From Bacteroidota bacterium (GTDB lineage Bacteria; Bacteroidota; Bacteroidia; Chitinophagales; Chitinophagaceae): a stretch of 64,000 nt of DNA. The position numbers and the translations under genes were made by a program. The stretch covers positions 23,177 to 87,176 of the forward strand of contig CANGUG010000010.1 of NCBI GenBank assembly GCA_947457075.1. The letters are read 5' to 3'. The notes under the pieces were generated by a model. That model was not told the DNA's origin. It saw only the letters and a list, made by a program, of their open reading frames with translations, and searched no databases. Positions 7,404 to 49,416 of this stretch are shown here, in pieces (positions within the stretch are counted from its first letter, which is position 1; every line of letters begins with the position of its first letter).

Positions 7404-7486
7404 GCGCCTATTTGTCTTTAAAAAATCAAACATTTATTAGGCACAACCGGGTACTTTTAAGATATTTGTTTTATAAAATATTTTTT

Positions 7487-8113
7487 ATGGATGTAGAAAT
7501 GGCATACCGTGATTGGTCTTCACAATATGATACCAATTTGAATAAAACAAGGGACTTAGAAGCCATTGCATTAAAGGAAACACTTGGCAATTATCAATTT
7601 GAACACTGTTTAGAAATAGGTTGTGGTACAGGAAAAAATACAAGCTGGTTGGGAACAATTTGTCAAAACATTACAGCTGTTGATTTGACAAAAGAAATGA
7701 TTGCAATCGCAAAATCAAAAATCAACACTTCAAATATCAATTTCATCATTGCGGATATTAATGAGGATTGGAGTTTTGCAAAAAGGGAATATGATTTAGC
7801 CACTTTTAGTTTAGTATTGGAACATATTCAAGATATAGAAGCAGTTTTTGAGAAATTATCAAAAGTAGTTGTAAAAGACGGATATGTTTATATTGGGGAG
7901 CTTCATCCATTTAAACAGTATGCGGGTTCAAAGGCAAGATTTATGACTGAACATGGGGAACAAGTCGTAAATTGTTACACTCACAATGTATCTGATTTTT
8001 ATACTGCAGCCAAAAAAGCAGGATTTGTCATTGAGCAATTTAATGAGTATTTTGACGATAATGATAGGACAAATATTCCTAGAATTCTGACCATTTTATG
8101 TAAGAAAATATAA
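7487..8113 (+). CDS. Class I SAM-dependent methyltransferase
   Basis: LEIGCGTG motif I, AVDLT.EMI, FSLVLEHI, ELHPFKQY. ATG at 7487 is preferred to the track's TTG at 7412. Confidence 0.85.
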   Translation: MDVEMAYRDWSSQYDTNLNKTRDLEAIALKETLGNYQFEHCLEIGCGTGKNTSWLGTICQNITAVDLTKEMIAIAKSKINTSNINFIIADINEDWSFAKREYDLATFSLVLEHIQDIEAVFEKLSKVVVKDGYVYIGELHPFKQYAGSKARFMTEHGEQVVNCYTHNVSDFYTAAKKAGFVIEQFNEYFDDNDRTNIPRILTILCKKI

Positions 8114-8134
8114 ATTGAAAAAATTATCTATTGT

Positions 8135-9082
8135 ATGAAGATTAAATTAATTAAAAATAGATCTGATATTGGAGCAGGCACCAGAGGGTCCGACATGGGT
8201 ATTGATGCGATTGAAATAGCAGCGATTAATCAAAATAATGATTATTTCAATAGACATTTATTTCAAGATGTAGAGACACATAATGAAACTATCTACAACA
8301 AAAACACCAACACCTTTGCCAAAAGAATTGAACATGTTGTAGAGCAATGTGAAAGGGTGTGTGACGCTGTTTGTGAAAATTTGGAACAAGGTTTTTTCCC
8401 TATAGTTCTTTCAGGAGATCATTCCTCAGCATTAGGTACCATTAGCGGTATAAAAAAAGCATTACCTCATCAACAAATTGGAGTAATTTGGTTAGATGCA
8501 CATGCCGACTTGCACTCTCCTTTCACTTCCCCTTCAGGCAATATACATGGTATGCCATTGGCTGCTACCTTAGGTTTTGATAATTTAGATTGTAAAATTA
8601 ACGAACCAGGTGATTTGACCATTAGTCATTGGGAAAATTTAAAAAGTATAGGTACAGATAGTGCTAAAATAATTCCAGCTCATTTAGTTTATATAGGGGT
8701 GCGTGATTATGAGGAAGCGGAAAAATATACCATTGAAAAAAATAAAATTAAACATATTAAAGTTGAAGAGTTAAGGTTCCGCGGTTTGGCTACTTGTATT
8801 CAAGAAGCAATTCATCAACTTGCTAATTGTGATTTCATTTATATATCATTTGACGTTGACTCAATGGACTGTGACAATATATCTTATGGAACAGGTACGC
8901 CAGTGCCTAGGGGTTTAATGCCTGAAGAAATCTTGCAAATTTTTGATTTGTTTTTAGCAACAAATAAAGTTGGTTGCATTGAGTTTACCGAAATAAATCC
9001 TCTATTAGACAACAAAGGAAATAAAATGGCGGAGACTGCATTTCAGGTGCTAGACCATATTTCCAATCAAATCCCCCATTAG
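8135..9082 (+). CDS. rocF: Arginase
   Basis: LSGDHSSA, DAHADLH, HGMPLA, SFDVDSMD, GTGTP and EFTEINP are ureohydrolase/arginase Mn-binding motifs. Confidence 0.88.
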   Translation: MKIKLIKNRSDIGAGTRGSDMGIDAIEIAAINQNNDYFNRHLFQDVETHNETIYNKNTNTFAKRIEHVVEQCERVCDAVCENLEQGFFPIVLSGDHSSALGTISGIKKALPHQQIGVIWLDAHADLHSPFTSPSGNIHGMPLAATLGFDNLDCKINEPGDLTISHWENLKSIGTDSAKIIPAHLVYIGVRDYEEAEKYTIEKNKIKHIKVEELRFRGLATCIQEAIHQLANCDFIYISFDVDSMDCDNISYGTGTPVPRGLMPEEILQIFDLFLATNKVGCIEFTEINPLLDNKGNKMAETAFQVLDHISNQIPH

Positions 9083-9086
9083 ATTT

Positions 9087-10583
9087 ATGCGCATCCCCCT
9101 TACCTTATTTTTATTTTTTGCAATGATTACCTGCAGTTGCTTAAGTAGTCATGCGCAAAATGAAGTGCGTAAAGACACAAATAATAATGAAAGTTTGTAT
9201 AGGCCAATCATACATTTTTCGCCTAAAAAAGGTTGGATGAATGATCCCAATGGAATGTTTTTTCAAAATGGGGTCTATCATTTATATTATCAATTTTATC
9301 CCAATGCCACAGTATGGGGGCCAATGCATTGGGGACACGCTACTAGCAAGGATCTGATACATTGGGAGCATAAGCCCATTGCAATATATCCCGACAGTTT
9401 AGGCTTAATTTTTTCCGGAAGTGCAGTAGTGGATAAATACAATACATCAGGCTTAGGTACACTAAAAAATCCGCCCATCATTTCCATATTTACACAACAT
9501 TCAATGGAAGGTGAAAAAGCAGGAAAAAATAATTTTCAAAATCAGAGTATTGCTTACAGCAATGACGGTGGGAATACCTGGAAAATGTATCCTGGCAATC
9601 CTGTGATTAAAAATCCAGGTATTAATGATTTTAGAGATCCTAAAGTTATTTGGCATGAACCTACTAAACATTGGATCATGGCGTTGGCAGTAAAAAATAA
9701 AGTTTCATTGTATAGTTCCGAAAATTTAAAGGATTGGAATTTTGAATCGGATTTTGGCGAACTATTGGGTAACCATGAAGGTGTATGGGAATGTCCTGAT
9801 TTATTTTCATTACCCTATAATGGAAAAACTTATTGGGTGCTATCCGTTAGTGTAAATCCAGGAGGCCCCAATAAAGGATCGGCAACACAATATTTTGTGG
9901 GTGATTTTGACGGACATAAATTCAGTACTTCTTCTAGTAAAACAAAATGGGTAGATTATGGTGCTGATAATTATGCTGGGGTAACCTGGTACAATACGGG
10001 TAATAGAAAAATAGCCATTGGATGGATGAGCAATTGGTTGTATGCACAACAAGTGCCTACTGATAAATGGAGAAGCGCCATGACCATTGCAAGAGAGTTG
10101 AATTTACAGGAAGTAGGAGAGGAAATGTATTTAACTTCAATGCCTGTTAAGGAATTGAAATTTTATAAATCAAATTATTTATCGGAGGGGCCAATAACCC
10201 AAAATTTGCCTTATGAAATTAATATACAAGGTTCAAATATCAATAGCTTCACGCTTACTTTAAATAATGAGGAAGGGGAGTCTTTGGATTTTGGATTTGA
10301 TCAATCTACTAATCAATATTTTATTGATCGAAGTTTTGCAGGGGTGCATAGTTTTCATAAGGACTTTGCTGCTTTACATTCGGCCCCAAGAATCAGTACT
10401 AAGTCTAATTTTTCATTTAAAGTTTTAATTGATAAAACTTCCATTGAAATTTTTTCAGACAATGGACTCACGGTAATGACTGATATCTTTTTTCCTACTA
10501 GCCCCTATAATAATATAGCGATCCAGTCTCAAAGTGAGGAGATTCGAAAAAATATAAAAATTAGTTCTTTATTGGCAAAGTAA
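9087..10583 (+). CDS. Glycoside hydrolase family 32 (levanase/fructan beta-fructosidase), secreted
   Basis: WMNDPNG (nucleophile), WGHATS.DL, FSGSAV, FRDPKV and WECPDLF, plus an N-terminal signal peptide. Confidence 0.93.
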   Translation: MRIPLTLFLFFAMITCSCLSSHAQNEVRKDTNNNESLYRPIIHFSPKKGWMNDPNGMFFQNGVYHLYYQFYPNATVWGPMHWGHATSKDLIHWEHKPIAIYPDSLGLIFSGSAVVDKYNTSGLGTLKNPPIISIFTQHSMEGEKAGKNNFQNQSIAYSNDGGNTWKMYPGNPVIKNPGINDFRDPKVIWHEPTKHWIMALAVKNKVSLYSSENLKDWNFESDFGELLGNHEGVWECPDLFSLPYNGKTYWVLSVSVNPGGPNKGSATQYFVGDFDGHKFSTSSSKTKWVDYGADNYAGVTWYNTGNRKIAIGWMSNWLYAQQVPTDKWRSAMTIARELNLQEVGEEMYLTSMPVKELKFYKSNYLSEGPITQNLPYEINIQGSNINSFTLTLNNEEGESLDFGFDQSTNQYFIDRSFAGVHSFHKDFAALHSAPRISTKSNFSFKVLIDKTSIEIFSDNGLTVMTDIFFPTSPYNNIAIQSQSEEIRKNIKISSLLAK

Positions 10584-14205: not shown

Positions 14206-14841
14206 TTATTTTTTCTTAATCCAATCAAATGAATTTCTATTCATAATAATCCAGCCATTATTTTCCATTTTTTTTAGTAAACGGCTTATTACTTCCCTCG
14301 AGGTATTTAAATCATTGGCAATTTCCTGGTGTGTTAATTTTACAGTATTTCCAAATTGATGTACATGTCTTTCAATATAAAATGCTAAGCGTTCATCCAT
14401 ATTTTTGAATGCAGTTTCATTAATAGTTTTAAGGAGTTCTTCATACCTGCTTCGGTAAGTTTTAATTACAAAGTAGTGCCAACTCTTAAATTCGTTTAAC
14501 CACTTTTCCATAAATTCAATGGGAATAGCTAAATATTTTATGTCAGTCATTGCCTTTGCTAAAACCTGACTTTGTTCATGATGGTAATTGCAAACAAGGG
14601 TTACAGCACATGCCTCCCCTGGGTTTAAATGGTACATAAAATATTCACCACCATCCTCCCCTTCCTGATACAACTTAACAGTACCTTCAATTACCAACAT
14701 GGCAGATTTAATATTTTGACCCATTTTTAGCATAGTGGTACCTGCTTTTGCTTCTTTAAGCACTGCTTCATTTAACACAGCGTCATACAATCCTTCTTCC
14801 CAATTGGGAAATATTTTTTTGAGTGTTTCTTTGGATAGCAT
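14206..14841 (-). CDS. Crp/Fnr family transcriptional regulator
   Basis: cNMP-binding-like N-terminal domain (GTVKLY...YHL.PGEACA) and C-terminal HTH LTHQEIANDLNTSREVISRLLKK. Confidence 0.92.
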   Translation of the reverse strand: MLSKETLKKIFPNWEEGLYDAVLNEAVLKEAKAGTTMLKMGQNIKSAMLVIEGTVKLYQEGEDGGEYFMYHLNPGEACAVTLVCNYHHEQSQVLAKAMTDIKYLAIPIEFMEKWLNEFKSWHYFVIKTYRSRYEELLKTINETAFKNMDERLAFYIERHVHQFGNTVKLTHQEIANDLNTSREVISRLLKKMENNGWIIMNRNSFDWIKKK

Positions 14842-15991: not shown

Positions 15992-16942
15992 TTATTTAAA
16001 CCATTCTCCCAATTTTGCTATATCTACATTGCCCCCTGTTAAAATAATACCCACTTTTTTTCCTTGAAATAAAGCTGGATTTTTTAAAGCTGCCGCGAAT
16101 GGAACAACACAACTTGGCTCTACAATAATTTTCATGCGTTCATAAATTAAGCGCATGGCCGATTTTATTTCCTCGTCTGATACCAATAAAATGTCGGTGA
16201 CATGTTCTTTAATAATGGCCAAAGTTCGATCACTTAAAGTGGTTAAAAGTCCATCAGCAATCGTATTGACAAATGCAGCTTTTTCCACTTTGCCCGTTTG
16301 TAAACTTAACACCGCGTCAGCTGCCCCTTCGGGTTCACCTGCATATACTTTTACAGTTGGTTTAAAATAATGCACTCCTAAACAGGTACCAGATAATAAT
16401 CCACCACCGCCAACAGGGGTAATGACTATTTCCAAATCTGGCACTTCGGCTAATAATTCTTTTACACAAGTGGCTTGCCCTTCAATTACATCATCATTGT
16501 CATAGGGATGTATAAAAGTGGCGCCTGTTTTTTCAACAATCGCATTTAATGTTTCTTCTCTTGCTTGTTGATTGGGGGCACACATAGTTACTTCGGCACC
16601 ATATCCATTTACTGCATTCACTTTTACCTGCGGTGAATTGCTAGGCATGACAATATAGGCTTTGGTGTTTAAAATTTTCCCGGCATAGGCCATTGCTTGT
16701 GCATGATTGCCGGAGGAATGGGTGGCAACGCCTTTGGAAATTTGCTCAGGCGTTAATTTTAAACTTGCGTTCATTCCACCTCGAATTTTAAATGCCCCAA
16801 TTTTCTGAAAATTCTCACATTTAAAATAAAATTCAATACCCGACAGTGCATTGATACTTTGATTGGTAAGTACTGGCGTGTTATGGATATAGGGTTGAAT
16901 GCGTTTATGCGCGTTTTCTATGGAGGCTTTTGTAATATTCAT
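15992..16942 (-). CDS. PLP-dependent fold-type II enzyme: serine racemase / Ser-Thr dehydratase-like, no ACT domain
   Basis: FKCENFQKIGAFKIRG (PLP Lys), THSSGNHAQA, PVGGGGLLSG, TIADGL, ILTGGNVD. Confidence 0.88.
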   Translation of the reverse strand: MNITKASIENAHKRIQPYIHNTPVLTNQSINALSGIEFYFKCENFQKIGAFKIRGGMNASLKLTPEQISKGVATHSSGNHAQAMAYAGKILNTKAYIVMPSNSPQVKVNAVNGYGAEVTMCAPNQQAREETLNAIVEKTGATFIHPYDNDDVIEGQATCVKELLAEVPDLEIVITPVGGGGLLSGTCLGVHYFKPTVKVYAGEPEGAADAVLSLQTGKVEKAAFVNTIADGLLTTLSDRTLAIIKEHVTDILLVSDEEIKSAMRLIYERMKIIVEPSCVVPFAAALKNPALFQGKKVGIILTGGNVDIAKLGEWFK

Positions 16943-17332
16943 ATTACTACATTATGAAGGTCAATTTATAAATTAAATCTGTGAAAGTTTCAATTCAAAA
17001 AAATTAGATATAGATTATTATTAAAACACCATTTTTGAAAATTTAGACAATAAAATGGCCAATTTGAGTCAATTAATGTTGTTTTTCAATTCAAGACCCT
17101 TAAAAAATTAAATTTTCTAATAAAAAAATAAATATGCAATTATTTATAATATGTTTAGAAAAAATTTTACATTGATAATCAATTAGTTAGGTGAAAATAT
17201 TAATACAGTCTATAAAAACTATATAGATAATTAGTCTTTTCATTTTAAATTTATGGAAATATGTTAAGATTTTCTTAATTTAGTTGCTCGTGTTTTACAT
17301 GACAAATCAGTTTAACAAAAATTAAAACAAGT

Positions 17333-20300
17333 ATGAGAAAAAAACTTTTATGGAGCTTACTTGCATCTTGCCTATTTTTTGGTAATGCAATGGCCCAAAA
17401 TTCTACCGTGAATGGTAGAGTAACTGATGATAAGGGAGATCCAATTGTTGGAGCTACTATTCAGGTTAAAGGAACAAATGTGGGAACTACATCAGATAAT
17501 GATGGTGTTTTCAAAATTAAAGCTGCAAATGGTGCTACTTTAACAATACAGGCACTTGGTTTTGAAACCAAAACAGTGGCTGCTACTAATAACCTAGTTG
17601 TTAAACTAGTTACTGATGTGAAAGCATTAAGTGAAGTAGTTGTAACTGGTTTTGGTGGATCACTCATTAAAAAAGAATTAACTGGTAACATTGCACGTGT
17701 TCGTGGAAAGGATATCGAATATATGCCTACACCAAGTGTGGACGCTGCATTACAAGGTAAAGCTGCCGGTGTATTCGTAAATAGCCAATCTGGTAAATTA
17801 GGTCAAGCGGTAACAGTGAGAGTAAGAGGTAACTCTTCAATTTCTGCTTCTAGCCAACCTTTATATGTATTAGATGGTATCCCAGTAACTTCTCAGGATC
17901 AATCTACTTATGGTGGTGATATGAACCCATTAACTGATTTGAACCCTAACGATATTGAATCAATTGAAGTTTTAAAAGACGCCTCTGCAGGTGCGATCTA
18001 TGGATCTCGTGCTGCAAATGGTGTAGTTTTAATCACTACAAAAAGAGGTAAGGCTGGAAGAACACAAATCACTTTTAACTTACAAACTGGTCAGTCAGAA
18101 GCTACCAAAAGAGTTAGAATGTTAAATTCAACTGAGTACAACGAGTTAGCAATGGAAGCTGCTAAGTATTCTGATGATGCGGAAGGTATTCCTTACACTG
18201 ATCCTTCAAGCTATACTCAATACATGAAGGACATTATGAGTTACCATAGTTTTGGACAATGGGATACTGATAAGGCTAAGTCTTACGATTGGCAGGATCA
18301 GGCATTTCAAACAGGCCAATACCGCCAAGCTGATTTACAAATTAGAGGTGGTAATGATAAAACTAAATTCTTCTCTTCTTTCCAACACTTAGACCAAGGT
18401 GGTACAATTGTTGGTAATGATTTAAGCAGAACTACAGGTCGTTTAAATGTGGATCAAAAAGCAAATGATTGGTTAGATTTAGGAGTTTCTTTAAGCTTGT
18501 CTAGAACATACAATCGTCGTTTGCCAGGTGATAATGCGTTTTCTAATCCATTACAATCTGCTGCATTACTTCCAATGACTCCATTTACTGATCCTAACAC
18601 GGGCTTACCAACAGGTACACCTCCAGGTGATGTAAACGTGGGTATATATTTTAACCCAAGAATTCAAATTGATTACGCAAAGTATACACAGGATGTGTAC
18701 AGAACTTTTGGTAATACTTATTTCAAAGTGAAATTATTACCAGGTTTAACATTCCAATCTGAATTTGGTTTAGACTTCTTAAGCCAAAATGAAGAGCGTT
18801 ATTTCCAAACACAAACAGTTAGAAACACAAGTTCTTCAACTGGTGAGGGTACTAACACAGGCGCATTTATCACTAACTATAATACCAATAGCTATTTTAG
18901 CTATAATAAAATAAAGGGTGTGCACAATTTCGCTGCTACTTTAGGTATGCAATACCAACAATCTCAAGCGAAATATAACAGTACTACTGGTATTGGCTTC
19001 CCTTCTGATTCTTATAAAAAAATTGCAAGTGCTGCTACTAAATCTGGTGGTAGTTCTTCTCAAACAGATTTCAGATTTTTATCTTATTTTTTAAGAACTA
19101 ATTACACATTTAACGAAAAGTATATCGTTTCAGCAAGTGGTCGTATAGATGCATCTTCTAGATTTGGTAAGAATTCAAGAACTGGTTTCTTCCCAGCACT
19201 TTCTGCTGGTTGGATCTTGTCTAACGAGAAGTTCTTAAGCAATAACAAATATTTAAGTTTCTTGAAAGCAAGAGCTTCTTATGGTATCGTGGGTAACTCT
19301 GAAATTGGTAACTTCCCTCAAATGGGCTTGTTTACTGGTGACGCTGGTTATGCTGGTGCTGCTGGTCAAAGACCTTCTCAATTAAGAAATGATGACTTGA
19401 GATGGGAATCAACTACTCAAACTGACGTAGGTATCGATTTCGGTTTCTTTAATAATAGAATCTCTGGAGAAATTGACTATTACGTTAAAAATACAGATGG
19501 TTTGTTATTAAACGTAAATATCCCAGCAACAACTGGTTTTTCTAGCATGGTAAAGAATGTTGGTAAATTAGAAAACAAAGGATATGAATTTGTATTAAAT
19601 ACACAAAACTTAGTAGGCGAATTCAAGTGGAACACAAGCTTTAACGTTGCATTGAACCAAAATAAGGTTACCGATATCCAAGGTCAAGTAATTGAAGGCG
19701 GTGTGGGTAATATGAACCGTGTTCAAGAAGGATATGCAATTGGTGTTTACTATACTGCAGAGTGGGCTGGTGTTGATCCTGCGAATGGTAATGCATTATG
19801 GTATAAGAATACAAAAAATGCAGACGGAACAATTGACAGGACTAAAACAAGCGTATTTAGTCAAGCACAAAGAGTGGTTACAGGTAATCCTAACCCAGAT
19901 GTAATTTTAGGTTTCACCAACTCATTCTCTTACAAAGGATTTGACATGTCAATATTCTTCAATGCGGTGTTTGGTAACGAAAATAACATTTACGGTATGG
20001 GTCGTTATTCTTCTGCTAGTATGCGTTATGAGGATAACCAAACATATGATCAAATGGCACGTTGGCAAAAGCCTGGTGATATCACCAATATCCCTCAAGC
20101 AAGATTGTTCTATAACAATGGTGCTCAAATTAGTAGTCGTTACATTGTTGACGGTTCTTACATTCGTTTAAGAACAGCTTCACTTGGATATACTTTTGAT
20201 GCTAAGAAATTAAGAAAGCTTAAGCTTGAAAAATTAAGAGTGTATGTATCAGGACAAAACTTATTAACCTTCACAAAGTATCCTTATTGGGATCCTGAGG

Positions 20301-20401
20301 TTAATGCGGATGATTTTGATTCAAATATTGCAAAGGGCAATGACTTTTATACACCGCCACAACCAAGAACAATATTGTTTGGCGTAAACATTAATTTCTA
20401 A
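17333..20401 (+). CDS. susC: SusC/RagA family TonB-dependent receptor
   Basis: Signal peptide, carboxypeptidase-regulatory-like domain, LSEVVVTGF, ALQGKAAGV, PLYVLDG, LNPNDIESIEVLKDASAGAIYGSRAANGVVLITTKRG, LRWE, and C-terminal PRTILFGVNINF. Confidence 0.96.
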   Translation: MRKKLLWSLLASCLFFGNAMAQNSTVNGRVTDDKGDPIVGATIQVKGTNVGTTSDNDGVFKIKAANGATLTIQALGFETKTVAATNNLVVKLVTDVKALSEVVVTGFGGSLIKKELTGNIARVRGKDIEYMPTPSVDAALQGKAAGVFVNSQSGKLGQAVTVRVRGNSSISASSQPLYVLDGIPVTSQDQSTYGGDMNPLTDLNPNDIESIEVLKDASAGAIYGSRAANGVVLITTKRGKAGRTQITFNLQTGQSEATKRVRMLNSTEYNELAMEAAKYSDDAEGIPYTDPSSYTQYMKDIMSYHSFGQWDTDKAKSYDWQDQAFQTGQYRQADLQIRGGNDKTKFFSSFQHLDQGGTIVGNDLSRTTGRLNVDQKANDWLDLGVSLSLSRTYNRRLPGDNAFSNPLQSAALLPMTPFTDPNTGLPTGTPPGDVNVGIYFNPRIQIDYAKYTQDVYRTFGNTYFKVKLLPGLTFQSEFGLDFLSQNEERYFQTQTVRNTSSSTGEGTNTGAFITNYNTNSYFSYNKIKGVHNFAATLGMQYQQSQAKYNSTTGIGFPSDSYKKIASAATKSGGSSSQTDFRFLSYFLRTNYTFNEKYIVSASGRIDASSRFGKNSRTGFFPALSAGWILSNEKFLSNNKYLSFLKARASYGIVGNSEIGNFPQMGLFTGDAGYAGAAGQRPSQLRNDDLRWESTTQTDVGIDFGFFNNRISGEIDYYVKNTDGLLLNVNIPATTGFSSMVKNVGKLENKGYEFVLNTQNLVGEFKWNTSFNVALNQNKVTDIQGQVIEGGVGNMNRVQEGYAIGVYYTAEWAGVDPANGNALWYKNTKNADGTIDRTKTSVFSQAQRVVTGNPNPDVILGFTNSFSYKGFDMSIFFNAVFGNENNIYGMGRYSSASMRYEDNQTYDQMARWQKPGDITNIPQARLFYNNGAQISSRYIVDGSYIRLRTASLGYTFDAKKLRKLKLEKLRVYVSGQNLLTFTKYPYWDPEVNADDFDSNIAKGNDFYTPPQPRTILFGVNINF

Positions 20402-20420
20402 TTTGTTAATAATGAATTTT

Positions 20421-21809
20421 ATGAAAATATATAAAAAAACAATAAACAAATACTTAACTGCTATTTTGTTTACGAGCGTACTTGCTACGGCTTGCGAAAA
20501 GCGTTTGGACGTATTCCCGTACCAAAGTATTTCCGATAGTAAAGCCTTATTATCTGAGGGTGATGTAAATGTTACGCTTGTTGGAGCTTATGATGGAGCG
20601 CAAGCAGCAACGCTTTACGGTGGAGATATTATGGTATTGAATGAATTAATCGGTAATAGCGATAATATTAATTTCACTGGTACTTTTGCAGGCTTATCTG
20701 ATGCGTACAGAGGGCAAATGGTAGCCAACAACTCCAATGCAACAGGTACTTGGACCGCAGCTTACAGTACGATTAATCGTATCAACAATGTTTTATCAGC
20801 GATTGATAAAGTAACTTCTTCACCAGCTAATAAAGCGCGTGTTGAAGGAGAAGCTCTTTTCTTAAGAGGCTCTCTTTATTTTGAATTGGTAAAATTATTT
20901 GCTAAGCCATTTGGTGATGGCGATTACGCTGCAAATTTGGGTGTGCCAATTGTTTTAACACCAACTGGTAATGTAACTGAAGCGGATTATAAAGCAAGAG
21001 CAACTGTGAAAGCAGTATATGATCAAGTGATCGCTGACTTAAATAGAGCTGAAACTTTATTGCCGTCTTCAAATGGCATCTACGCAACAAAATGGTCAGC
21101 TGCTGCTCAATTATCAAGAGTACATTTAATGTTAAAAAATTATGCTGATGCTGGAGCTGCTGCTAATAGAGTAATTACTGGTAGCGGTAAAACCATTGCG
21201 AATGATATTGACAAAAACTGGTTTACTTTTATTAAAAATGGCGGAACAACACCTGCTGAATATTTATTTTCAATGAAAGTAACTGCTCAGGATGGTACTA
21301 ACGCTTTAAATACTTATTTCGGAAGAACCATCAGTACCATTGCAGGTAGTGCTGGAAGAAGTGATTGTAAAATTAAAACAGCACATTTTGCTCAATACGA
21401 AACAGGGGATAAAAGAAAAGACTATTTTGTTTTATCAGGCGGTAACTACTACACCATGAAGCATTTGGATCGTTTTGGTGATGTGCCAGTTATTCGTTTA
21501 TCTGAAATGCATTTAACAAGAGCTGAAGCAAATGTGAGAGCGGGTACTGCAGTGGGTGCATCAGCACTAACTGATGTGAATGCAATTCGTACACGTGCTG
21601 GTTTAGCTCCTTTAAATACAGTTTCTTTAGCGGATGTATTAAAAGAAAGAAGACTAGAATTAGCTTTCGAAGGACAATTCTTACCAGATGCTAAGAGATT
21701 ACAAATTTCTGTTGGTACTTTGGCTTGGAATTCTCCAAAGTTAATCATGCCTATCCCTCAAAGAGAGATGGATGTAAATAAAAAATTAGTACAAAACGAA
21801 GGTTATTAA
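20421..21809 (+). CDS. susD: SusD/RagB family surface lipoprotein
   Basis: Lipobox LATAC, W...YSTINRIN, GEALFLRG..YFELVKLF, VIRLSEMHL.RAEA, ERRLELAFEG, PIPQRE; directly follows susC. Confidence 0.93.
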   Translation: MKIYKKTINKYLTAILFTSVLATACEKRLDVFPYQSISDSKALLSEGDVNVTLVGAYDGAQAATLYGGDIMVLNELIGNSDNINFTGTFAGLSDAYRGQMVANNSNATGTWTAAYSTINRINNVLSAIDKVTSSPANKARVEGEALFLRGSLYFELVKLFAKPFGDGDYAANLGVPIVLTPTGNVTEADYKARATVKAVYDQVIADLNRAETLLPSSNGIYATKWSAAAQLSRVHLMLKNYADAGAAANRVITGSGKTIANDIDKNWFTFIKNGGTTPAEYLFSMKVTAQDGTNALNTYFGRTISTIAGSAGRSDCKIKTAHFAQYETGDKRKDYFVLSGGNYYTMKHLDRFGDVPVIRLSEMHLTRAEANVRAGTAVGASALTDVNAIRTRAGLAPLNTVSLADVLKERRLELAFEGQFLPDAKRLQISVGTLAWNSPKLIMPIPQREMDVNKKLVQNEGY

Positions 21810-21845
21810 TTCTAACTGAATGATTTAACTAAGTTTAACAACTTA

Positions 21846-21889
21846 AAAAATGCCCTCATGAAGTTTAACTTCTGGGGGCATTTTTATTT
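21846..21889 (+). terminator. Rho-independent terminator after susD
   Basis: AAAAATGCCCTCA(t)GAAGT-tta-ACTTCTGGGGGCATTTTT hairpin followed by a T-rich tail. Confidence 0.8.
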
Positions 21890-21933
21890 CAGGTCCATTT
21901 TTGTTTTTGAAGTACTTTTCCTATCTTAACACT

Positions 21934-23268
21934 ATGCAGGAAACAAAAAAACAATTGGGATTGTGGACGAGTACTTCATTGGTCGTTGGCAATATGATTG
22001 GTGCAGGTGTATTTATGATGCCTGCTACTTTGTCCAGCTTTGGAGGCATAAGTTTAATTGGATGGGTTTGTGCTGCGATTGGGGCATTTTTAATTGCAAA
22101 AGTATTTGCGCATTTATCTAAATTATTGCCCGCTGCCGACGGCGGACCCTATGCGTATTCACAAAAAGGATTAGGTGATTTTGCCGGCTTTCTAGTAGCC
22201 TGGGGTTATTTGGTTTCTGTATGGTGCACCAATGCCGCTATTACGGTTTCCTTTATCAGCGCAATGAGTACTTTTATTCCCAGTTTGGCAACTAATTCCA
22301 TTTTAGCAGTGGCTACAGGACTAGGCACCATTTGGTTTTTATCTTGGATAAATTCCTTAGGTATTTTAACCTCAGGCATCCTTCAATTAGTCACTACCAT
22401 TTTAAAAATTGTCCCCATTGTTTTAATTGGGGTTGTTGGATTATTTTATATTCAATGGAATAATTTTTTACCTTTTAATTCCAGCGGTACTTCCTCCATT
22501 GCTGCTATTACAGCAACAACCACCTTAACGTTTTTCGCTTTCCTTGGCATTGAATGTGCAACCATTCCTTCGGGCAGTGTGGCAAATTCTGCAGCTACTG
22601 TTGCCAAAGCTACTACTTTGGGCACCCTCATTGCAACAGTTGTATATATTTTAAGTACGGTAAGCATTATGGGGATGATCCCAGCTGCTGCTCTAAAACA
22701 AAGTGTCACTCCCTTTGCCGATGCAGCGGTTATTATTTGGGGAGCGAGTGCAAAATATTGGGTAAGTGCAGGGGTAGCTATATCCGCATTTGGTGCCCTC
22801 AACGGGTACATTTTAATCCAAGGACAAATGCCTTATGCCATTGCCAAAGACAAGTTATTTCCCGCTATTTTTACCCGTAAAAATAACAAAGGTGTTCCTG
22901 TATTTGGGATTGTGATTTCTAGCATTTTTGTTTCTGTATTTATGGCCATGAATTATACCAAAGGATTAGTGGCTCAGTTTCAGTTTTTAATTTTATTGAC
23001 AACTTCAACTATTTTAATTCCTTATATATTTTGCACTGCTTCCTATTTATTATTAAGATTAAAGGGATCATTGCCTTCCAACGCAGTATTTAACGGTGCA
23101 ATATTATTAGCAAGTTTGGCATTTGTTTTTTGCATGTGGATCACTATAGGCTTAGGATATGAAACCGTATTCTGGGGCTTTGTACTTACCATGTCCTCGG
23201 TGCCAATTTATGTTTTTGCGGTTTGGAAAAGAGATCAAAAAACCAATAAGGATAATCAACTACTTTAG
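21934..23268 (+). CDS. APC-superfamily amino acid permease (PotE/CadB/ArcD-like)
   Basis: GNMIGAGVFMMP, GGPYAY, FAFLGIECAT and about 12 TM segments. The ATG at 21934 is preferred. Confidence 0.9.
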   Translation: MQETKKQLGLWTSTSLVVGNMIGAGVFMMPATLSSFGGISLIGWVCAAIGAFLIAKVFAHLSKLLPAADGGPYAYSQKGLGDFAGFLVAWGYLVSVWCTNAAITVSFISAMSTFIPSLATNSILAVATGLGTIWFLSWINSLGILTSGILQLVTTILKIVPIVLIGVVGLFYIQWNNFLPFNSSGTSSIAAITATTTLTFFAFLGIECATIPSGSVANSAATVAKATTLGTLIATVVYILSTVSIMGMIPAAALKQSVTPFADAAVIIWGASAKYWVSAGVAISAFGALNGYILIQGQMPYAIAKDKLFPAIFTRKNNKGVPVFGIVISSIFVSVFMAMNYTKGLVAQFQFLILLTTSTILIPYIFCTASYLLLRLKGSLPSNAVFNGAILLASLAFVFCMWITIGLGYETVFWGFVLTMSSVPIYVFAVWKRDQKTNKDNQLL

Positions 23269-23341
23269 ATTTTTGTATTTTAACAGCCGATATATTTTAA
23301 ACACAACTACGAATCAATAATACTAAGTAATATAATCCACC

Positions 23342-24211
23342 ATGAGCGCACATTCTGAATCAGGAAAATTAAAATCGGTTTTTATCAAAAAAGCAGCTGC
23401 TGCATTTATTGATGAGGCACATGTTTCAAAACATTGGGAAGCCCTTAATTATTTGGGTAAACCTGTTATTGAAAAAGCATTGGAAGAGTATGAGGCATTT
23501 GAAAAAATTTTAAAAGACAATGGGGCAGAAGTTTTGTATTTTCCTCAGGAGGATAGTGTAAATATGGATTCAATTTATTGTAGAGATGCAGCTATTGCCA
23601 CCAGTAAAGGAATGATTATTTGCAATATGGGCAAAGCAGGTCGAGTGAATGAACCAGTTGTTCAACAACACGCTTTTGAAGCCAATGGCATTCCTGTACT
23701 AGGGATGATCACTGCACCAGGTACTTTAGAAGGAGGTGATGTAGCCTGGCTAGATGAGAAAACATTGGCAGTGGGCCATACCTATCGAACCAATGAAGAA
23801 GGAATAAGGCAATTAACTGCATTCGTTTCACCATTAGGCGTAACAGTTATATCCGTGCCTATGCCCCATTACAAAGGGCCTTCGGACGTGTTTCATTTAA
23901 TGTCGGTATTGAGTCCAGTAGATAGTAATTTAGCAGTGGTGTATTCTCCCTTAATTCCAATTGTATTTAGAAACGAATTAATTGCACGCGGTTATGAATT
24001 AGTAGAAGTGCCTGATGCGGAGTTTGATAGCATGGGGTGCAATGTTTTAGCATTATCACCGCGAGTATGTTTAATGGTAAAGGGTAATCCAATCACCAAA
24101 GACAGGTTAGAAAAAGCAGGTTGTAAAGTAATTGAATATGAAGGCGAAGAAATTAGCGTTAAAGGAGGAGGAGGACCTACTTGTTTAACAAGACCGCTTA
24201 TGCGTGATTAA
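23342..24211 (+). CDS. Amidinotransferase-fold enzyme (dimethylarginine dimethylaminohydrolase / arginine deiminase family)
   Basis: ESGKLKSV, IYCRD, LEGGDV, catalytic His in FHLMS and catalytic Cys in GGGPTCLTRP. Confidence 0.85.
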   Translation: MSAHSESGKLKSVFIKKAAAAFIDEAHVSKHWEALNYLGKPVIEKALEEYEAFEKILKDNGAEVLYFPQEDSVNMDSIYCRDAAIATSKGMIICNMGKAGRVNEPVVQQHAFEANGIPVLGMITAPGTLEGGDVAWLDEKTLAVGHTYRTNEEGIRQLTAFVSPLGVTVISVPMPHYKGPSDVFHLMSVLSPVDSNLAVVYSPLIPIVFRNELIARGYELVEVPDAEFDSMGCNVLALSPRVCLMVKGNPITKDRLEKAGCKVIEYEGEEISVKGGGGPTCLTRPLMRD

Positions 24212-24239: not shown

Positions 24240-24794
24240 TTATGCATTCCAATCCCATAGGACGATATCCCAGCCAGTTCCTACTTGTTCAATGACACCA
24301 ATAGTTTCAAATCCAATTTTCTGGTGCATTTTAATGGATCTTTTATTGGATTGAGAAATATCCGTTACTAAATAAGTGTATTCTTTTGCATGAAGTTGTT
24401 GATAATAATCATACATAGCAGGTACCCAGCCCTGTCCTCTATGACTTTTAGCAACACAAACCTGACCCACTAAAATATAGGGAACTTCATTTAGCAATAC
24501 TCCCTTATACATGGTTTTGTTTAGGGTATTCAATAAATGATCTACTTCGGGATGTTCGCCGTACACCGCTTTATTGGTAACAATCGTATAACCCACCACT
24601 TCATCTTCTTCCTTAACAATAATAGATGGGTGTATTGCATGCATTTTTTGTAGCAAGGATAATTCATACTCTGAAGTAACAAATCCTTCTTTCATTGCTT
24701 CCTCCTCGCCAATGAGTCGTCTTAAATTATTTGTTTGTAATTGTTTTAACCCAATTATTTCCTGGGTTGTTTCTACTAGTTTTAAAATAGCCAT
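24240..24794 (-). CDS. GNAT family N-acetyltransferase
   Basis: GQVCVAKSHRGQG acetyl-CoA motif and NKRSIKMH.KIGF. Confidence 0.75.
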   Translation of the reverse strand: MAILKLVETTQEIIGLKQLQTNNLRRLIGEEEAMKEGFVTSEYELSLLQKMHAIHPSIIVKEEDEVVGYTIVTNKAVYGEHPEVDHLLNTLNKTMYKGVLLNEVPYILVGQVCVAKSHRGQGWVPAMYDYYQQLHAKEYTYLVTDISQSNKRSIKMHQKIGFETIGVIEQVGTGWDIVLWDWNA

Positions 24795-27295: not shown

Positions 27296-27329
27296 TGTCT
27301 AATATTTGCGGTATAAACAACTCTATATC

Positions 27330-30127: not shown

Positions 30128-31636
30128 ATGAAACAATTATTTATTTTATCATTAGCCTTTTTAGCTGTAACTGGCTGTAGAAAAGTGGAAGCAGACGGTG
30201 AAAAGCAAATCGTTATTATTAATGCCGGTGGTACTGGTAACACAAGTCCAACTGCCAATACAGTGACTTTAAAGGGAAGAATCACAAAAGACACTACGTT
30301 ATTAGCAAAAGATATCAACTTCTTGTCTGGTATTGTGTATATCACTAAAGGAGTTACACTTACTGTTGAAGCTGGTGCCACAGTTAAAGGGCAGTTTTCT
30401 GGTGCGGATGTTTCTGCTTTAGTAATTTGCCGTGGAGCCAAAATTATAGCTAAAGGAACTGTTGACAAGCCAATTATATTTACTTCGGCCTCTGCCAATC
30501 CACAATCAGGCGATTGGGGTGGTATTGTATTGTGCGGAACTGCTCCAATTAATACAACTTTCACAGTGAACGGCGCTGCGGTAAATGGATTATACCAAGT
30601 TGAAGGAGGTGTTGATAATGCAAATGGTGACGGATTAGCGGGTGCAGGTGATGCTGCATTCCCAACTGTTAACCCTGCGGATAATTCGGGAATTTTACAA
30701 TATGTAAGAATTGAATATGCTGGATATGCTTATCAACCAGATAAAGAAATTAATAGTTTAACGATGGCTGCAGTAGGTAGTGGTACAACTATTGAATATG
30801 TTGAAGCTGCTTTTGGTAAAGACGATAGTTTTGAGTGGTTTGGTGGTACAGTGAACTGCAAATATTTAATTTCTTACAAAGGTCAGGATGATGATTTTGA
30901 CTCGGACAATGGCTATAGTGGTAATGTACAATTTGGTATTGTAATCCGTGATTCTGCGATTGCAGATATTTCTAAATCAGAAGCATTTGAATCTGACAAT
31001 AACCCAACTGGTACTACTGCCTCTCCAAAAACAAATGCTGTATTTTCAAATTTTACGCTTATTGGGCCAAGAGCAACATTAACTAATATTGGCAATAGCT
31101 TGTACCTAGCGGGTGCTCAAATTAGAAGAAACTCTGGTATTTCTATTCAAAATTCAATATTCATGGGATGGCCAATTGGTTTGTTAATTGATGCTAGTAC
31201 TGGTACTCCTACTGATTTAAATATAGTAGATAGTACTATTCGATTTAAAAATAATACTTTCGCAGGCAATAACATTAATGTAAAATATACAGTAAGTGCT
31301 AGTGCTCCAACTGGTGCTACTGATGCGAGTATGTTGGCTTGGGTGTCAACTCCGTTTTATAGAAATGCCATTGCATTGAATGCAGTGGATGCAAAGTTGA
31401 TTCAGCCATTTAACTATACCATGTTTGATGCAACTCCTTATGCAGGTTCAGCTGCACCCACTGGTATTAATTTAGTATTAGGAACTGCTGCTAATTTCAA
31501 CTATGCAAGCAATGGCTCTTTTGATGATGCTAAATTACAAAACCCTTACTTCAAGCCAGTTACTTTTAGAGGTGCTATTGGTTTAAATGGGGTGGATGCT
31601 ACTTGGTGGAAAGGTTGGGCTAAATTTAACTACTAA
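30128..31636 (+). CDS. Uncharacterised surface lipoprotein, probable parallel beta-helix, Asp-rich
   Basis: Lipobox VTGC, GDWGGIVLCG, YVRIEYAG, DKEINSLT, DDSFEWFGG, QDDDFDSDNG and AFESDN; cotranscribed with the TonB receptor. Confidence 0.75.
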   Translation: MKQLFILSLAFLAVTGCRKVEADGEKQIVIINAGGTGNTSPTANTVTLKGRITKDTTLLAKDINFLSGIVYITKGVTLTVEAGATVKGQFSGADVSALVICRGAKIIAKGTVDKPIIFTSASANPQSGDWGGIVLCGTAPINTTFTVNGAAVNGLYQVEGGVDNANGDGLAGAGDAAFPTVNPADNSGILQYVRIEYAGYAYQPDKEINSLTMAAVGSGTTIEYVEAAFGKDDSFEWFGGTVNCKYLISYKGQDDDFDSDNGYSGNVQFGIVIRDSAIADISKSEAFESDNNPTGTTASPKTNAVFSNFTLIGPRATLTNIGNSLYLAGAQIRRNSGISIQNSIFMGWPIGLLIDASTGTPTDLNIVDSTIRFKNNTFAGNNINVKYTVSASAPTGATDASMLAWVSTPFYRNAIALNAVDAKLIQPFNYTMFDATPYAGSAAPTGINLVLGTAANFNYASNGSFDDAKLQNPYFKPVTFRGAIGLNGVDATWWKGWAKFNY

Positions 31637-39378: not shown

Positions 39379-40467
39379 TTATGCTGCTGTGTAAGCGTCT
39401 GCTACACCTTTATTTAAAATTTTACCTGCTCTAATATTTAATCCTTTTCCTAAAGCAGCGTTTTCCATAATGGCTTTTTCCCAACCTTTATAAGCAATTG
39501 CAATTGCATAAGGCAGGGTGGCTTGTGTCAACGCCCTTGTACTTGTTTGTGGCACTGCACCAGGCATATTTGCTACGCAATAGTGGGTAATATCATTAAT
39601 GGTGAAAACAGGGTTTTCGTGAGTCGTTGGTTTACAAGTTTCAATACAACCCCCTTGATCCACTGCTACATCCACAATGACTGAACCCGCTTCCATTAAT
39701 TTTAAATCGTCTTTCTTTACCAAATGAGGTGCTTTTGCACCATGTAATAAAACAGCACCCACTAATAAATCGGTGGTAGGTAATTTTTCTTTAATCGCTA
39801 AAATGGTGGAATACTGAGTTACCACATTGGCTGGCATCACATCGCTTAAATACCTTAAACGCGCAAGGTTGGTATCCATGATCGTTACATTGGCGCCCAA
39901 ACCTGCAGCCATTTTCGCAGCTTGTGTTCCAACAATTCCTCCACCTATAATTAATACTTCGGCTGGCTTAACCCCTGGCACACCACCTAATAATTTTCCT
40001 TTGCCGCCAAAAGGCTTTCCTAAATAATACGCGCCCACGTTAATGGCCATTCTTCCTGCCACCTCAGACATAGGAACCAATAAAGGCAATGATCCGTCTG
40101 CTAATTCAACCGTTTCATAAGCAATACAAACTGCATGAGATTTAATCATTGCTTCCGTTAATTCCTTAGAAGCAGCAAAATGGAAATAGGTAAATAATAT
40201 TTGTCCCGCTTTAATGAGTGGATATTCAGCCGCCAAAGGTTCTTTCACCTTTACAATCATCTCTGCAATTTCATACACTTCTTTTGCAGAATTTAAAATG
40301 GAAGCACCAACTGCTTTATAAGCTTCGTCTGAAAAGCCAGAACCTACCCCAGCGTTGGTTTCCATAAATACCTCATGACCTTGTCTTACTAGTGCGTCCA
40401 CCCCTTCTGGTGTCAAACCTACTCGGTATTCCTGCACTTTAATTTCTTTTGGGCATCCGATAATCAT
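39379..40467 (-). CDS. ald: Alanine dehydrogenase
   Basis: IGCPKEIK..EYRV, VKVKEP, FTYFHFAA, PMSEVAGR, GGGIVG, DVAVDQGGC, HYCVANMPGAVP. Confidence 0.96.
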   Translation of the reverse strand: MIIGCPKEIKVQEYRVGLTPEGVDALVRQGHEVFMETNAGVGSGFSDEAYKAVGASILNSAKEVYEIAEMIVKVKEPLAAEYPLIKAGQILFTYFHFAASKELTEAMIKSHAVCIAYETVELADGSLPLLVPMSEVAGRMAINVGAYYLGKPFGGKGKLLGGVPGVKPAEVLIIGGGIVGTQAAKMAAGLGANVTIMDTNLARLRYLSDVMPANVVTQYSTILAIKEKLPTTDLLVGAVLLHGAKAPHLVKKDDLKLMEAGSVIVDVAVDQGGCIETCKPTTHENPVFTINDITHYCVANMPGAVPQTSTRALTQATLPYAIAIAYKGWEKAIMENAALGKGLNIRAGKILNKGVADAYTAA

Positions 40468-47952: not shown

Positions 47953-48021
47953 AATAATTAAGATTTGATAGTTGGGAGATTCGCTCCCCTATCAGATCTT
48001 TACCCCATTAATTCTATTTTG

Positions 48022-49416
48022 ATGAAAATTGTTACAGTATTTTTTTCTCTTTCGCTTTTGACTTTTTCTGTACAAGTAAAAGCACAAAATAAAAAGGTGT
48101 TGGCAGATAAAATTGTTGCCACTGTTGGAGATAAATTTGTATTGAGGTCCGATATTGACAATGCCATTGCCGATTATAAAAGACAAGCGCAAGGCCAAGA
48201 AGGTGTAGTAATTCCCTCGCCTTGTCAAATTATGGAAGGGCAGTTAATTCGTAAAGCATTGGTATTACAAGCTGAAAAGGATTCTATCAATATTACCGAG
48301 GAGGATGTTCAAAATGCAATAGATAGTCGTATAAGACAATTTTTACAACAATTTGGTTCTAAAGAAGTGTTAGAGGAAGTTGCTGGACGTAGTATTTTTC
48401 AATTGAAAGAAGATTTCAGGGTTTTAATTAAGGAGCAGAAATTGGCTGATGAAATGCAGCAAAAAATTGTAGATAAGGTTAAAATTACCCCTACAGAAGT
48501 GCGTACTTATTATAATAAAATTCCAGTGGACAGCCTGCCTTTATATGAAAGTGAAGTTCAGGTATTGGAGTTGGTTATGCATCCCAAAGCCAACAGAGAT
48601 ATTGAAGAGTATGTAATAAAACAATTAATGGATTATCGTCGTCAAGTGGAATCGGGCATGACCAGCTTTGACCAATTGGTTAAATTATATTCAGAAGATC
48701 CTAGTTCAAAAGAAAATTTGGGCCAGTTTAATTTAAATCGCAACGAAAAAAACTTTGATCCTGCGTTTATGTCTGGATCATTCCGCTTAAAAGAAGGTCA
48801 AATATCAGCACCGGTAAAATCAAAATTCGGGTATCATTTAATTCAGCTTATTTCAAGATCGGGCGATGATGCTGTCGTGAAACACATTTTAAGAATTCCT
48901 CCAATTTCAAATGACGAAATTAATGACACTAAAAAGTTTTTAGATAGTATCAGAAAAGATATCCTTGCTGGCAAAACAACATTTGGTGAGCAAGTAAATA
49001 AGCATAGTGATGACGACGGAAGCAAATTTACGGGTGGGGCTATTTCGGGAAGAGACGGTTCAACCTATGTAAATTATGATGAATTGCCAGATAAAGATAT
49101 GGTGGTGGTGTTAAAATCAATGAAAAAAGGGGAGATTTCAGCACCTCAGGTATATGTTGATGATCGAGGCAGAAAAACTGTTCGACTTGTATTTTTCAGG
49201 GATTTGACCGAGCCACATAAAGAAAATATGAAGGAGGACTATAATAGAGTAGCCGCGCGCGCTTTGGAAGTTAAAAAAACTAAGGTTTTAGAGTCCTGGT
49301 TTAAAGAGCATATCACCAATTACTACATTAGTATTGACGAGGAATACCAAGCCTGTATGGAAATTAAGGATTGGACCAAGGTAGCCAATGAGCTTGTGAA
49401 GCAAAAAACCTATTAA
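48022..49416 (+). CDS. surA: SurA-like peptidyl-prolyl isomerase / periplasmic chaperone
   Basis: Signal peptide, ADKIVATVG, KITPTEV, parvulin domains (YSEDP, FDPAF, PVKSKFGYHLIQL, HSDD.GS). The ATG at 48022 is preferred. Confidence 0.8.
   Translation: MKIVTVFFSLSLLTFSVQVKAQNKKVLADKIVATVGDKFVLRSDIDNAIADYKRQAQGQEGVVIPSPCQIMEGQLIRKALVLQAEKDSINITEEDVQNAIDSRIRQFLQQFGSKEVLEEVAGRSIFQLKEDFRVLIKEQKLADEMQQKIVDKVKITPTEVRTYYNKIPVDSLPLYESEVQVLELVMHPKANRDIEEYVIKQLMDYRRQVESGMTSFDQLVKLYSEDPSSKENLGQFNLNRNEKNFDPAFMSGSFRLKEGQISAPVKSKFGYHLIQLISRSGDDAVVKHILRIPPISNDEINDTKKFLDSIRKDILAGKTTFGEQVNKHSDDDGSKFTGGAISGRDGSTYVNYDELPDKDMVVVLKSMKKGEISAPQVYVDDRGRKTVRLVFFRDLTEPHKENMKEDYNRVAARALEVKKTKVLESWFKEHITNYYISIDEEYQACMEIKDWTKVANELVKQKTY

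Follow-up and report, generated by a model that had tools for sequence, protein, structure and literature searches.

A stand-alone SusC/SusD pair in a freshwater Chitinophagaceae genome, probably relocated next to genes of amino-acid transport and metabolism

The DNA analyzed here is a window of 64,000 nucleotides (C10:23177-87176; coordinates given below without a locus name are those of the window) from the genome of an uncultured freshwater Chitinophagaceae bacterium of the Sediminibacterium type (2.2 Mb, 35% GC, 96.5% complete), and the object of study is a SusC/SusD pair that lies in it among amino-acid genes. The pair comprises a SusC/RagA-family TonB-dependent transporter (17333-20401, + strand) and a SusD/RagB-family lipoprotein lid (20403-21809, + strand). 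It is preceded by an AT-rich gap of 390 bp, which we read as the presumed SusCD promoter region (16943-17332), and is closed by an intrinsic terminator (21846-21893, + strand). On the 5' side the pair diverges from PALP, a gene for a fold-type II enzyme dependent on pyridoxal phosphate (PLP), of the beta-hydroxyaspartate dehydratase or serine-racemase-like kind (15992-16942, - strand; PF00291, 248 bits). On the 3' side it is followed by two genes of the same strand, encoding an APA-family (AdiC-like) basic amino acid/polyamine antiporter, hereafter the APC permease (21934-23268, + strand, 444 aa), and a hydrolase of the guanidino-group-modifying enzyme (GME) superfamily, of the dimethylarginine dimethylaminohydrolase (DDAH) and arginine deiminase (ADI) type (23342-24211, + strand, 289 aa). 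An earlier note on this DNA had listed these genes, each of which was recovered at the same coordinates, and had proposed that SusCD, the permease, the hydrolase (described there as an enzyme of amidinotransferase fold) and the PLP enzyme constitute a single locus for scavenging nitrogen from peptides or (methyl)arginine.

SusC was recovered with 845 bits by the family model TIGR04056 (cut-off 368) and with 65.5 bits by the signature model TIGR04057 (cut-off 46.2). It carries a signal peptide, an N-terminal extension in the form of a CarboxypepD_reg domain, a TonB box (...EVVVTG), a plug and a barrel, such that all the features of the SusC/RagA family for which we tested, namely the models, plug, barrel, N-terminal extension and TonB box, are present. 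A search of the protein against Pfam and NCBIfam domains detected no STN domain. SusD matches PF14322 (100 bits) and PF07980 (83 bits) and has a lipobox (...LATA-C31), the cysteine of which, Cys31, is invariant across 34 orthologues; its true start is likely to be the ATG at 20412, 10 bp 3' of the susC stop. The AlphaFold2 model of SusD (predicted local distance difference test 83, predicted template-modeling score 0.84) gave template-modeling (TM) scores of 0.75-0.8 against solved SusD structures. Together, the domains, the lipobox, the fold and the position directly 3' of susC comprise every property of SusD/RagB lipoproteins that was tested for, and all of them were found.

The 3' boundary of the pair is sharply defined. 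As the earlier note had cautioned, a terminator separates susD from the permease: a hairpin at 21846-21885 followed by a U-run, with a folding energy of -28.2 kcal/mol (z = -5.5) that was equalled in 0 of 200 shuffles. A simple terminator scan had overlooked it on account of a bulge in the stem, and the matches which that scan and a sigma-70 promoter scan did return were at chance level. Similar hairpins with U-runs lie 3' of susD in seven relatives with differing contexts, and the terminator is kept even where the gene for the glycine-cleavage T protein comes next on the same strand. Because a strong terminator thus stands 3' of susD in every context tested, the SusCD transcription unit ends with susD regardless of location. 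On the 5' side, an Rfam scan of the window matched no family in the region upstream of susC and showed no riboswitch there or 5' of the permease. The -7 motif of Bacteroidota promoters (TAnnTTTG) has no exact copy in the intergenic regions 5' of susC and 5' of the permease, and its genome-wide frequency does not exceed that in shuffles. We take the pair to be a self-contained unit that has an upstream region and a strong terminator of its own, without dedicated enzymes or a dedicated regulator.

To rank codon usage, the codon adaptation index (CAI) was computed for 1773 open reading frames (ORFs), with the S12-to-L15 ribosomal protein and EF-G operon (C9:17496-30976) as the reference set; the ribosomal-protein genes of this genome favor GGT, TTC, ATC, AAC, TCT, CAC, TAC and CGT. 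The impression in the earlier note, gained by eye, that the susCD codons are of the highly expressed type is borne out by this calculation. SusC, with a CAI of 0.732, ranks 27th of 1773 (98.5th percentile) and falls inside the range of the ribosomal proteins, and SusD, with 0.680, ranks 75th (95.8th percentile). The neighboring genes lie at the 21st (PALP), 9th (APC permease), 67th (hydrolase), 22nd (GNAT acetyltransferase) and 20th (ClC channel) percentiles. A tblastn search uncovered eight SusC paralogues in the genome, and because all eight rank between the 91st and 99.5th percentiles, with the SusC of this pair second among them, high codon adaptation is a property of SusCs as a class and not peculiar to this pair. 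The two proteins (17333-21809) are read as a TonB-dependent outer-membrane importer of the 'pedal-bin' type, which is probably highly expressed.

The evolutionary history of the pair was examined using SusD orthologues (54-93% identical) from 80 named genome loci, each taken together with its 10-kb flanks, with more from genomes of the same genus; the clade to which this SusCD belongs extends to Saprospiraceae-type and Cytophagales genomes. Of the 80 loci, 36 have radA and/or the RNase G gene flanking the pair, in the conserved order PSP1-holB-gpx-comF-radA on the minus strand, susC-susD on the plus strand and RNase G-TPR on the minus strand, followed by mutY-ssb-CNNM. These 36 loci include SusDs that are 82-88% identical to that of the window, and come among others from the cultured S. 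salmoneum NBRC 103935 and Sediminibacterium sp. C3 and from a Flavihumibacter. Among the 80 loci, the order in which PALP diverges from SusCD-APC-hydrolase occurs only in the window and in two others, L027 (the genome G014; SusD 93% identical) and L037 (85%). The ancestral position of SusCD in Sediminibacterium and related Chitinophagaceae would accordingly be the slot between radA and RNase G. That slot is empty in the three genomes with the derived layout (G000, G014 and G346), where radA and RNase G abut with the same junction of 58 bp; in G000 and G014 SusCD lies about 70 kb from this junction on the same contig. Because the same 58-bp junction occurs in all three and the pair is found some 70 kb away, the comparison indicates a single relocation over about 70 kb in the common ancestor of the three genomes and not a duplication.

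The site at which the pair arrived can be recognized in close relatives that retain the ancestral slot (L136-L138). Here the order is PsiS-PALP, then divergently APC-(ClC)-carbonic anhydrase-TonB-dependent receptor, without SusCD and without the hydrolase, and PALP and the APC permease gene are direct divergent neighbors about 37 bp apart (L136:7599-9881, L137:4971-7253 and L138:6817-9132). Since PALP and APC adjoin each other in the ancestral-slot relatives, SusCD was inserted into a pre-existing intergenic gap. The likely sequence of events is that in the common ancestor of the three genomes SusCD was cut from its slot and re-inserted about 70 kb away in the short PALP/APC gap. The 390-bp region 5' of susC shows DNA similarity only with L037, which has the derived layout, and none with the ancestral-slot relatives. 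PALP is therefore an old neighbor of the permease that stands outside the SusCD unit. Its best match is BhcB/threo-3-hydroxyaspartate ammonia-lyase, under the cut-offs (NCBIfam BhcB, 417 bits against 550), and in the close relatives PALP and APC, being older than the SusCD insertion, may be a functional pair that takes up a hydroxy or basic amino acid and deaminates it.

These observations bear directly on the single nitrogen-scavenging locus that had been proposed earlier, in which SusCD would import peptides, cyanophycin fragments or methylarginine-containing material, the permease would carry the products across the inner membrane and the enzymes would free their nitrogen. The genes do adjoin one another physically, with SusCD, APC and GME on the same strand; the arrangement is retained in three species, the hydrolase keeps the catalytic residues for an arginine-type substrate, and in general biochemical terms a flow of imported peptides into amino-acid uptake makes sense. 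However, the linkage appears to stem from one rearrangement: conservation of the SusCD-APC-GME association, the lack of which the earlier note had itself named as a refutation, extends only to the window and two close relatives, and neither the 36 loci of the radA/RNase G slot nor about 20 further contexts show the association. Conversely, ten other loci have APC-GME without this SusCD. Because the linkage with permease and hydrolase is not conserved, the adjacency of PALP and APC is older than SusCD, a strong terminator follows susD, and the CAI falls from the 96th-98th to the 9th percentile across the susD/APC junction, a joint locus is not supported. Moreover, a free amino acid such as methylarginine is not expected to need an importer of the SusCD type. 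We regard a joint locus as very unlikely. Because SusCD was relocated into the existing gap between PALP and APC, its adjacency to amino-acid genes is better seen as an incidental by-product of one rearrangement than as an operon; as a whole, the explanation that combines a self-contained importer, an incidental adjacency and an independent APC-hydrolase module is the best available and in our judgment a probable one.

The permease and the hydrolase show a distribution of their own. The true start of the permease is the ATG at 21934, and its 444-aa product is identical to a public gene call named as an APA-family antiporter; it scores 296 bits against TIGR00905 and 295 bits against the AdiC model NF007929, both under the cut-off. 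The hydrolase matches PF02274 (94 bits) and PF19420 (68 bits), and its nearest solved structures are those of the Pseudomonas aeruginosa DDAH (3rhy and 1h70). Alignment with these shows that it retains C281 (in the motif GGPTC), the histidine in DVFHL, the glutamate in GTLEGGD, two arginines and an aspartate. Hence the catalytic Cys-His-Glu triad and the Arg/Asp residues holding the amino-acid moiety, by which the superfamily is recognized, are conserved. Its scores against the equivalog models are low (92 and 85 bits with the DDAH models, for which 340 and 450 are needed, and 86 with ArcA, for which 489 is needed). The protein is accordingly a member of the guanidino-group-modifying superfamily that falls outside the equivalog models of both DDAH and ArcA.

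No hydrolase was found when the five nearest relatives with the ancestral slot were searched. Elsewhere, a sample of 300 other Chitinophagaceae genomes contained it in 13, from 8 of 150 other genera, with 61-75% identity. An APC gene lies directly 5' of it on the same strand in 10 of the 13 other Chitinophagaceae loci (L108-L127 being among the loci compared), and none of the 13 has this SusCD clade or PALP nearby. The permease and hydrolase thus form a separate, independent and conserved two-gene module with a patchy distribution. The permease of the window is about 60% identical to the hydrolase-free APCs of the same genus, as against 77-81% for the flanking genes. In an APC tree it belongs to a clade with 100/100 support that stands apart from those congeneric GME-free APCs, the tree being otherwise a polytomy. 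It is possible that the resident APC was replaced by a transferred cassette.

In terms of function, the most likely role of the module is to import arginine, or arginine in methylated form, and to split its guanidino group by hydrolysis, with ammonia or methylamine and citrulline as products. The earlier suggestion that the permease and hydrolase handle arginine-type substrates is thus reasonable in view of the catalytic residues kept, whereas their assignment to the SusCD locus does not hold, the module being separate and linked in 10 of 13 loci without SusCD. The arrangement is reminiscent of arcD-arcA, and of the P. aeruginosa DDAH (1h70, 3rhy), in that a basic-amino-acid antiporter is paired with a guanidino hydrolase of the same superfamily, which has the Cys-His-Glu triad for catalysis as well as the Arg and Asp that bind the substrate. 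It differs from the arginine deiminase pathway in that neither arcB nor arcC adjoins the module in the window, and from ADI itself (about 410 aa) in that the hydrolase, at 289 aa, has the size of DDAH; from both ArcA and DDAH it is set apart by scores far under the respective NCBIfam cut-offs. The antiporter-hydrolase pair is a candidate for a small route by which Chitinophagaceae would obtain nitrogen from arginine or methylarginine.

The substrate of SusCD itself was approached through its neighbors. We carried out a Pfam scan of about 48 proteins encoded beside SusCD, which represent about 22 distinct contexts in three or more families. Neither in the window nor in these other contexts did the scan find a glycoside hydrolase (GH), polysaccharide lyase or carbohydrate esterase family among the neighbors, most of which are unrelated housekeeping proteins such as MnmE, MgtE, GcvT, an Na/H exchanger and an E1 dehydrogenase. 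The absence of a GH, sulfatase, hybrid two-component system (HTCS) or extracytoplasmic function (ECF) gene adjoining the pair, as the earlier note had it, is upheld by the gene identities in the window. The possibility that it had raised of orthologues in polysaccharide utilization loci (PULs) for glycans was not realized in any of the approximately 22 contexts, in none of which a carbohydrate-active enzyme (CAZyme) was seen. The marks of a PUL are likewise missing around the pair: there is no co-located CAZyme, no adjoining HTCS, ECF sigma/anti-sigma or SusR gene, and SusC lacks the STN domain. A Crp-family gene (14206-14841) is three genes from SusCD and was there before the SusCD insertion.

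The pair could nevertheless be a glycan importer of dispersed organization, taking up a common oligosaccharide that is degraded by enzymes encoded elsewhere in the genome. Among solved structures the closest to SusC is the dextran SusC 8aa4 (417 bits), followed by the levan SusC 5t3r (356), RagA 6sli (345) and ButC 8ypu (232). Foldseek comparison of the SusD model with the PDB returned the ligand-free structural-genomics SusDs 3kez, 3mcx and 3myv at the top and a laminarin-binding SusD at rank 7. A small streamlined genome of 2.2 Mb may favor dispersed loci, and the CAZyme nearest to SusCD in the window, a GH32 enzyme (9087-10583), lies 6.7 kb upstream. On the other hand, the GH32 gene is six unrelated genes away in a region where the pair arrived only recently, the bit-score gaps to RagA are small, the lack of any adjoining CAZyme in about 22 contexts over at least three families is unusual for a glycan SusCD, and peptidases recur in place of CAZymes. 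We therefore hold a glycan importer to be possible but rather unlikely. Neither sequence nor fold revealed a specific closeness of the pair to RagA/RagB over the glycan SusCDs. Comparison with solved structures was in fact uninformative as a means of inferring the substrate, with glycan and peptide transporters scoring alike, and the SusD model with its Foldseek matches confirmed the fold and nothing beyond it.

Peptidases of the S9, C1, M28 and M14 families adjoin SusCD in 6 of the approximately 22 contexts. An S9 peptidase gene lies directly 5' of susC on the same strand in L038 and L053, and in L075 (1395-8000) a gene for an S9 peptidase of the prolyl-oligopeptidase family, on the strand of susC, has entered the otherwise conserved slot between radA and susC, giving the same S9-susC-susD order. 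Another S9 peptidase is encoded directly 3' of the pair in the distant genome G028, whose SusC is 44% identical. In other loci a papain-family C1 peptidase gene lies 5' of the pair (L095), and genes for an M28 peptidase (L096, immediately) and an M14 peptidase (L097) lie 3' of it. Farther out, beyond a second SusCD, L102 encodes an M43 peptidase tagged for the type IX secretion system. A second, distant SusC/SusD pair (26-36% identity) is found directly 3' of the orthologous pair in L046, L057, L084, L088, L093 and L102. Both of the S9 peptidases examined (L038 and G028) carry Sec signal peptides. By a rough Poisson estimate, six peptidases were observed among about 50 neighbor slots where about 2 would be expected (P about 0.01), a figure that is suggestive but lacks rigor. 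These neighbors weakly favor peptide import. The view in the earlier note that a CAZyme-free SusCD of this kind imports peptides gains some independent support from them, in lineages other than that of the window, where no peptidase adjoins the pair.

By analogy with RagAB and ButCD, our best-supported guess is that the cargo consists of oligopeptides, an assignment to which we give a little less than an even chance. The imported peptides would then be cut by exported peptidases encoded elsewhere. More tentatively still, the clade, which keeps its fixed radA/RNase G slot across Chitinophagaceae, might represent the main constitutive oligopeptide gate of these free-living Bacteroidota, comparable to RagAB but in environmental bacteria, and supply exported exopeptidases of the S9, M14 and M28 families. 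If this were so, the abundant 'orphan' SusCDs of freshwater Bacteroidota would be importers of protein nitrogen and not of glycans.

Several observations weigh against the account of a relocated, self-contained and possibly peptide-importing pair. Neither the window nor the common radA/RNase G slot has a peptidase adjoining the pair, such that the peptide assignment draws on a minority of contexts. The three loci with an upstream S9 gene possibly go back to one event, and the background rate in the Poisson estimate, a 3-4% share of peptidases among genes, is an assumed value. SusC is slightly nearer to the dextran and levan SusCs than to RagA or ButC, and RagB is absent among the phmmer matches of SusD and stands only at rank 25 in the Foldseek comparison with the PDB. 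The high CAI is common to all SusC paralogues and is a proxy for expression. True orthologues of the pair were found in only 7 of 24 sampled genomes of the same genus, which makes it an accessory and not a core feature. At the DNA level the relocation breakpoints are not mappable: blastn of the intergenic DNA, tried for this purpose, aligned only two genomes, both with the same derived layout, the ancestral-slot relatives being too diverged. Finally, the APC tree does not settle whether APC-GME came by transfer.

In a further alternative, the pair imports some other large solute, neither peptide nor glycan, for instance a cofactor, a piece of nucleic acid or a small protein, or is mainly a highly abundant surface complex exploited by phages or bacteriocins. 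The patchy occurrence within the genus (7 of 24 genomes) is what would be expected of a surface protein under conflict. The commonest context of the pair lacks an enzyme partner of any kind, and ButCD shows that conserved SusCDs can be used for the import of small proteins (PMC11467351). There is no positive support for any particular cargo of this sort, no riboswitch or Rfam element lies upstream, and the peptidase neighbors give some direction towards peptides; we consider this alternative improbable. A literature search on SusC/D function in Sediminibacterium found no fitness or expression data for the clade.

Oligopeptide import by a pair of this kind would have precedents. RagAB of Porphyromonas gingivalis (PDB 6sli, 6sln, 5cx8) is reportedly an oligopeptide importer, CAZyme-free and linked to peptidases. 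It shares with the window pair the SusC/RagA barrel and plug, the SusD/RagB lipoprotein lid and the lack of CAZymes, and it works with exported peptidases, the genes of which need not lie alongside. RagA matches SusC with 345 bits and RagB matches SusD in structure (TM about 0.71). However, RagA is outscored among solved homologues by the SusCs for dextran and levan, and RagB is undetected by sequence. Furthermore, the host of the window pair is a free-living freshwater member of the Chitinophagaceae and not an asaccharolytic oral pathogen. The canonical PULs (Sus, levan BT1762-63 and dextran BT3087-90) contain a homologous pair with presumably the same TonB-dependent pedal-bin mechanism, and it is to one of them that the closest solved SusC, 8aa4 (417 bits), belongs. 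The window pair differs from them in having no CAZyme, surface glycan-binding protein, HTCS/ECF/SusR regulator or STN domain, and the same holds for the approximately 22 other contexts. ButCD of Bacteroides fragilis (PDB 8ypt, 8ypu) is a second precedent for a CAZyme-free, peptidase-linked SusCD (PMC11467351), being a conserved stand-alone pair without polysaccharide-utilization genes that has a peptidase, a zinc metalloprotease, as an occasional or adjacent neighbor. It is a distant relative of the window pair (ButC, 232 bits to SusC; ButD, phmmer E = 8e-7 and Foldseek rank 12 against SusD), and its import of a ubiquitin-like toxin is without counterpart in the latter.

As CAZyme-free SusCD systems of the peptide type are already established in RagAB and ButCD, the present case leaves current understanding unchanged. 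Environmental Bacteroidota commonly have stand-alone SusCD pairs, which often rank with the most abundant proteins of their outer membrane; to our knowledge almost all of these pairs are without a known substrate. The most instructive feature of the case is the relocation history, which illustrates how a gene neighborhood can mislead: the suggestive amino-acid context would be the outcome of one recent relocation. The clade is never seen with CAZymes and repeatedly with peptidases, and its occurrence in cultured Sediminibacterium strains makes this a testable lead.

Beyond the hydrolase, a gene for a GNAT acetyltransferase (24240-24794, - strand; PF00583) is convergent on it, and genes for the ClC channel and then a carbonic anhydrase come after GNAT in the window. 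The GNAT gene accompanies the APC-hydrolase module in L037 and was not detected in L027 or L136-L139 in the synteny comparison. The arginase and alanine dehydrogenase to which the earlier note had drawn attention are present in the window as an arginase-family gene (8135-9082) and an alanine dehydrogenase gene (39379-40467), but neither is linked to SusCD. The arginase-family gene is part of an odd combination at 7412-10583 that looks co-transcribed: a methyltransferase gene, the arginase-family gene and the gene of the GH32 fructan hydrolase lie close together on a single strand, the latter two only 4 bp apart.

Some further features of the window deserve mention. Two ORFs (45043-47952 and 47965-49416) which by size might have been a second SusC/SusD pair are identified by Pfam as IF-2 and a SurA-like peptidyl-prolyl isomerase, the former belonging to a rimP-nusA-infB operon. 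After this operon and the isomerase gene comes, on the same strand, an ORF of 615 aa without a Pfam match (49490-51337). A protein of 502 aa (30128-31636), also without a Pfam match, is encoded 3' of the TonB receptor gene at 27306, and its CAI lies at the 96.5th percentile, as against the 88th for its TonB receptor.

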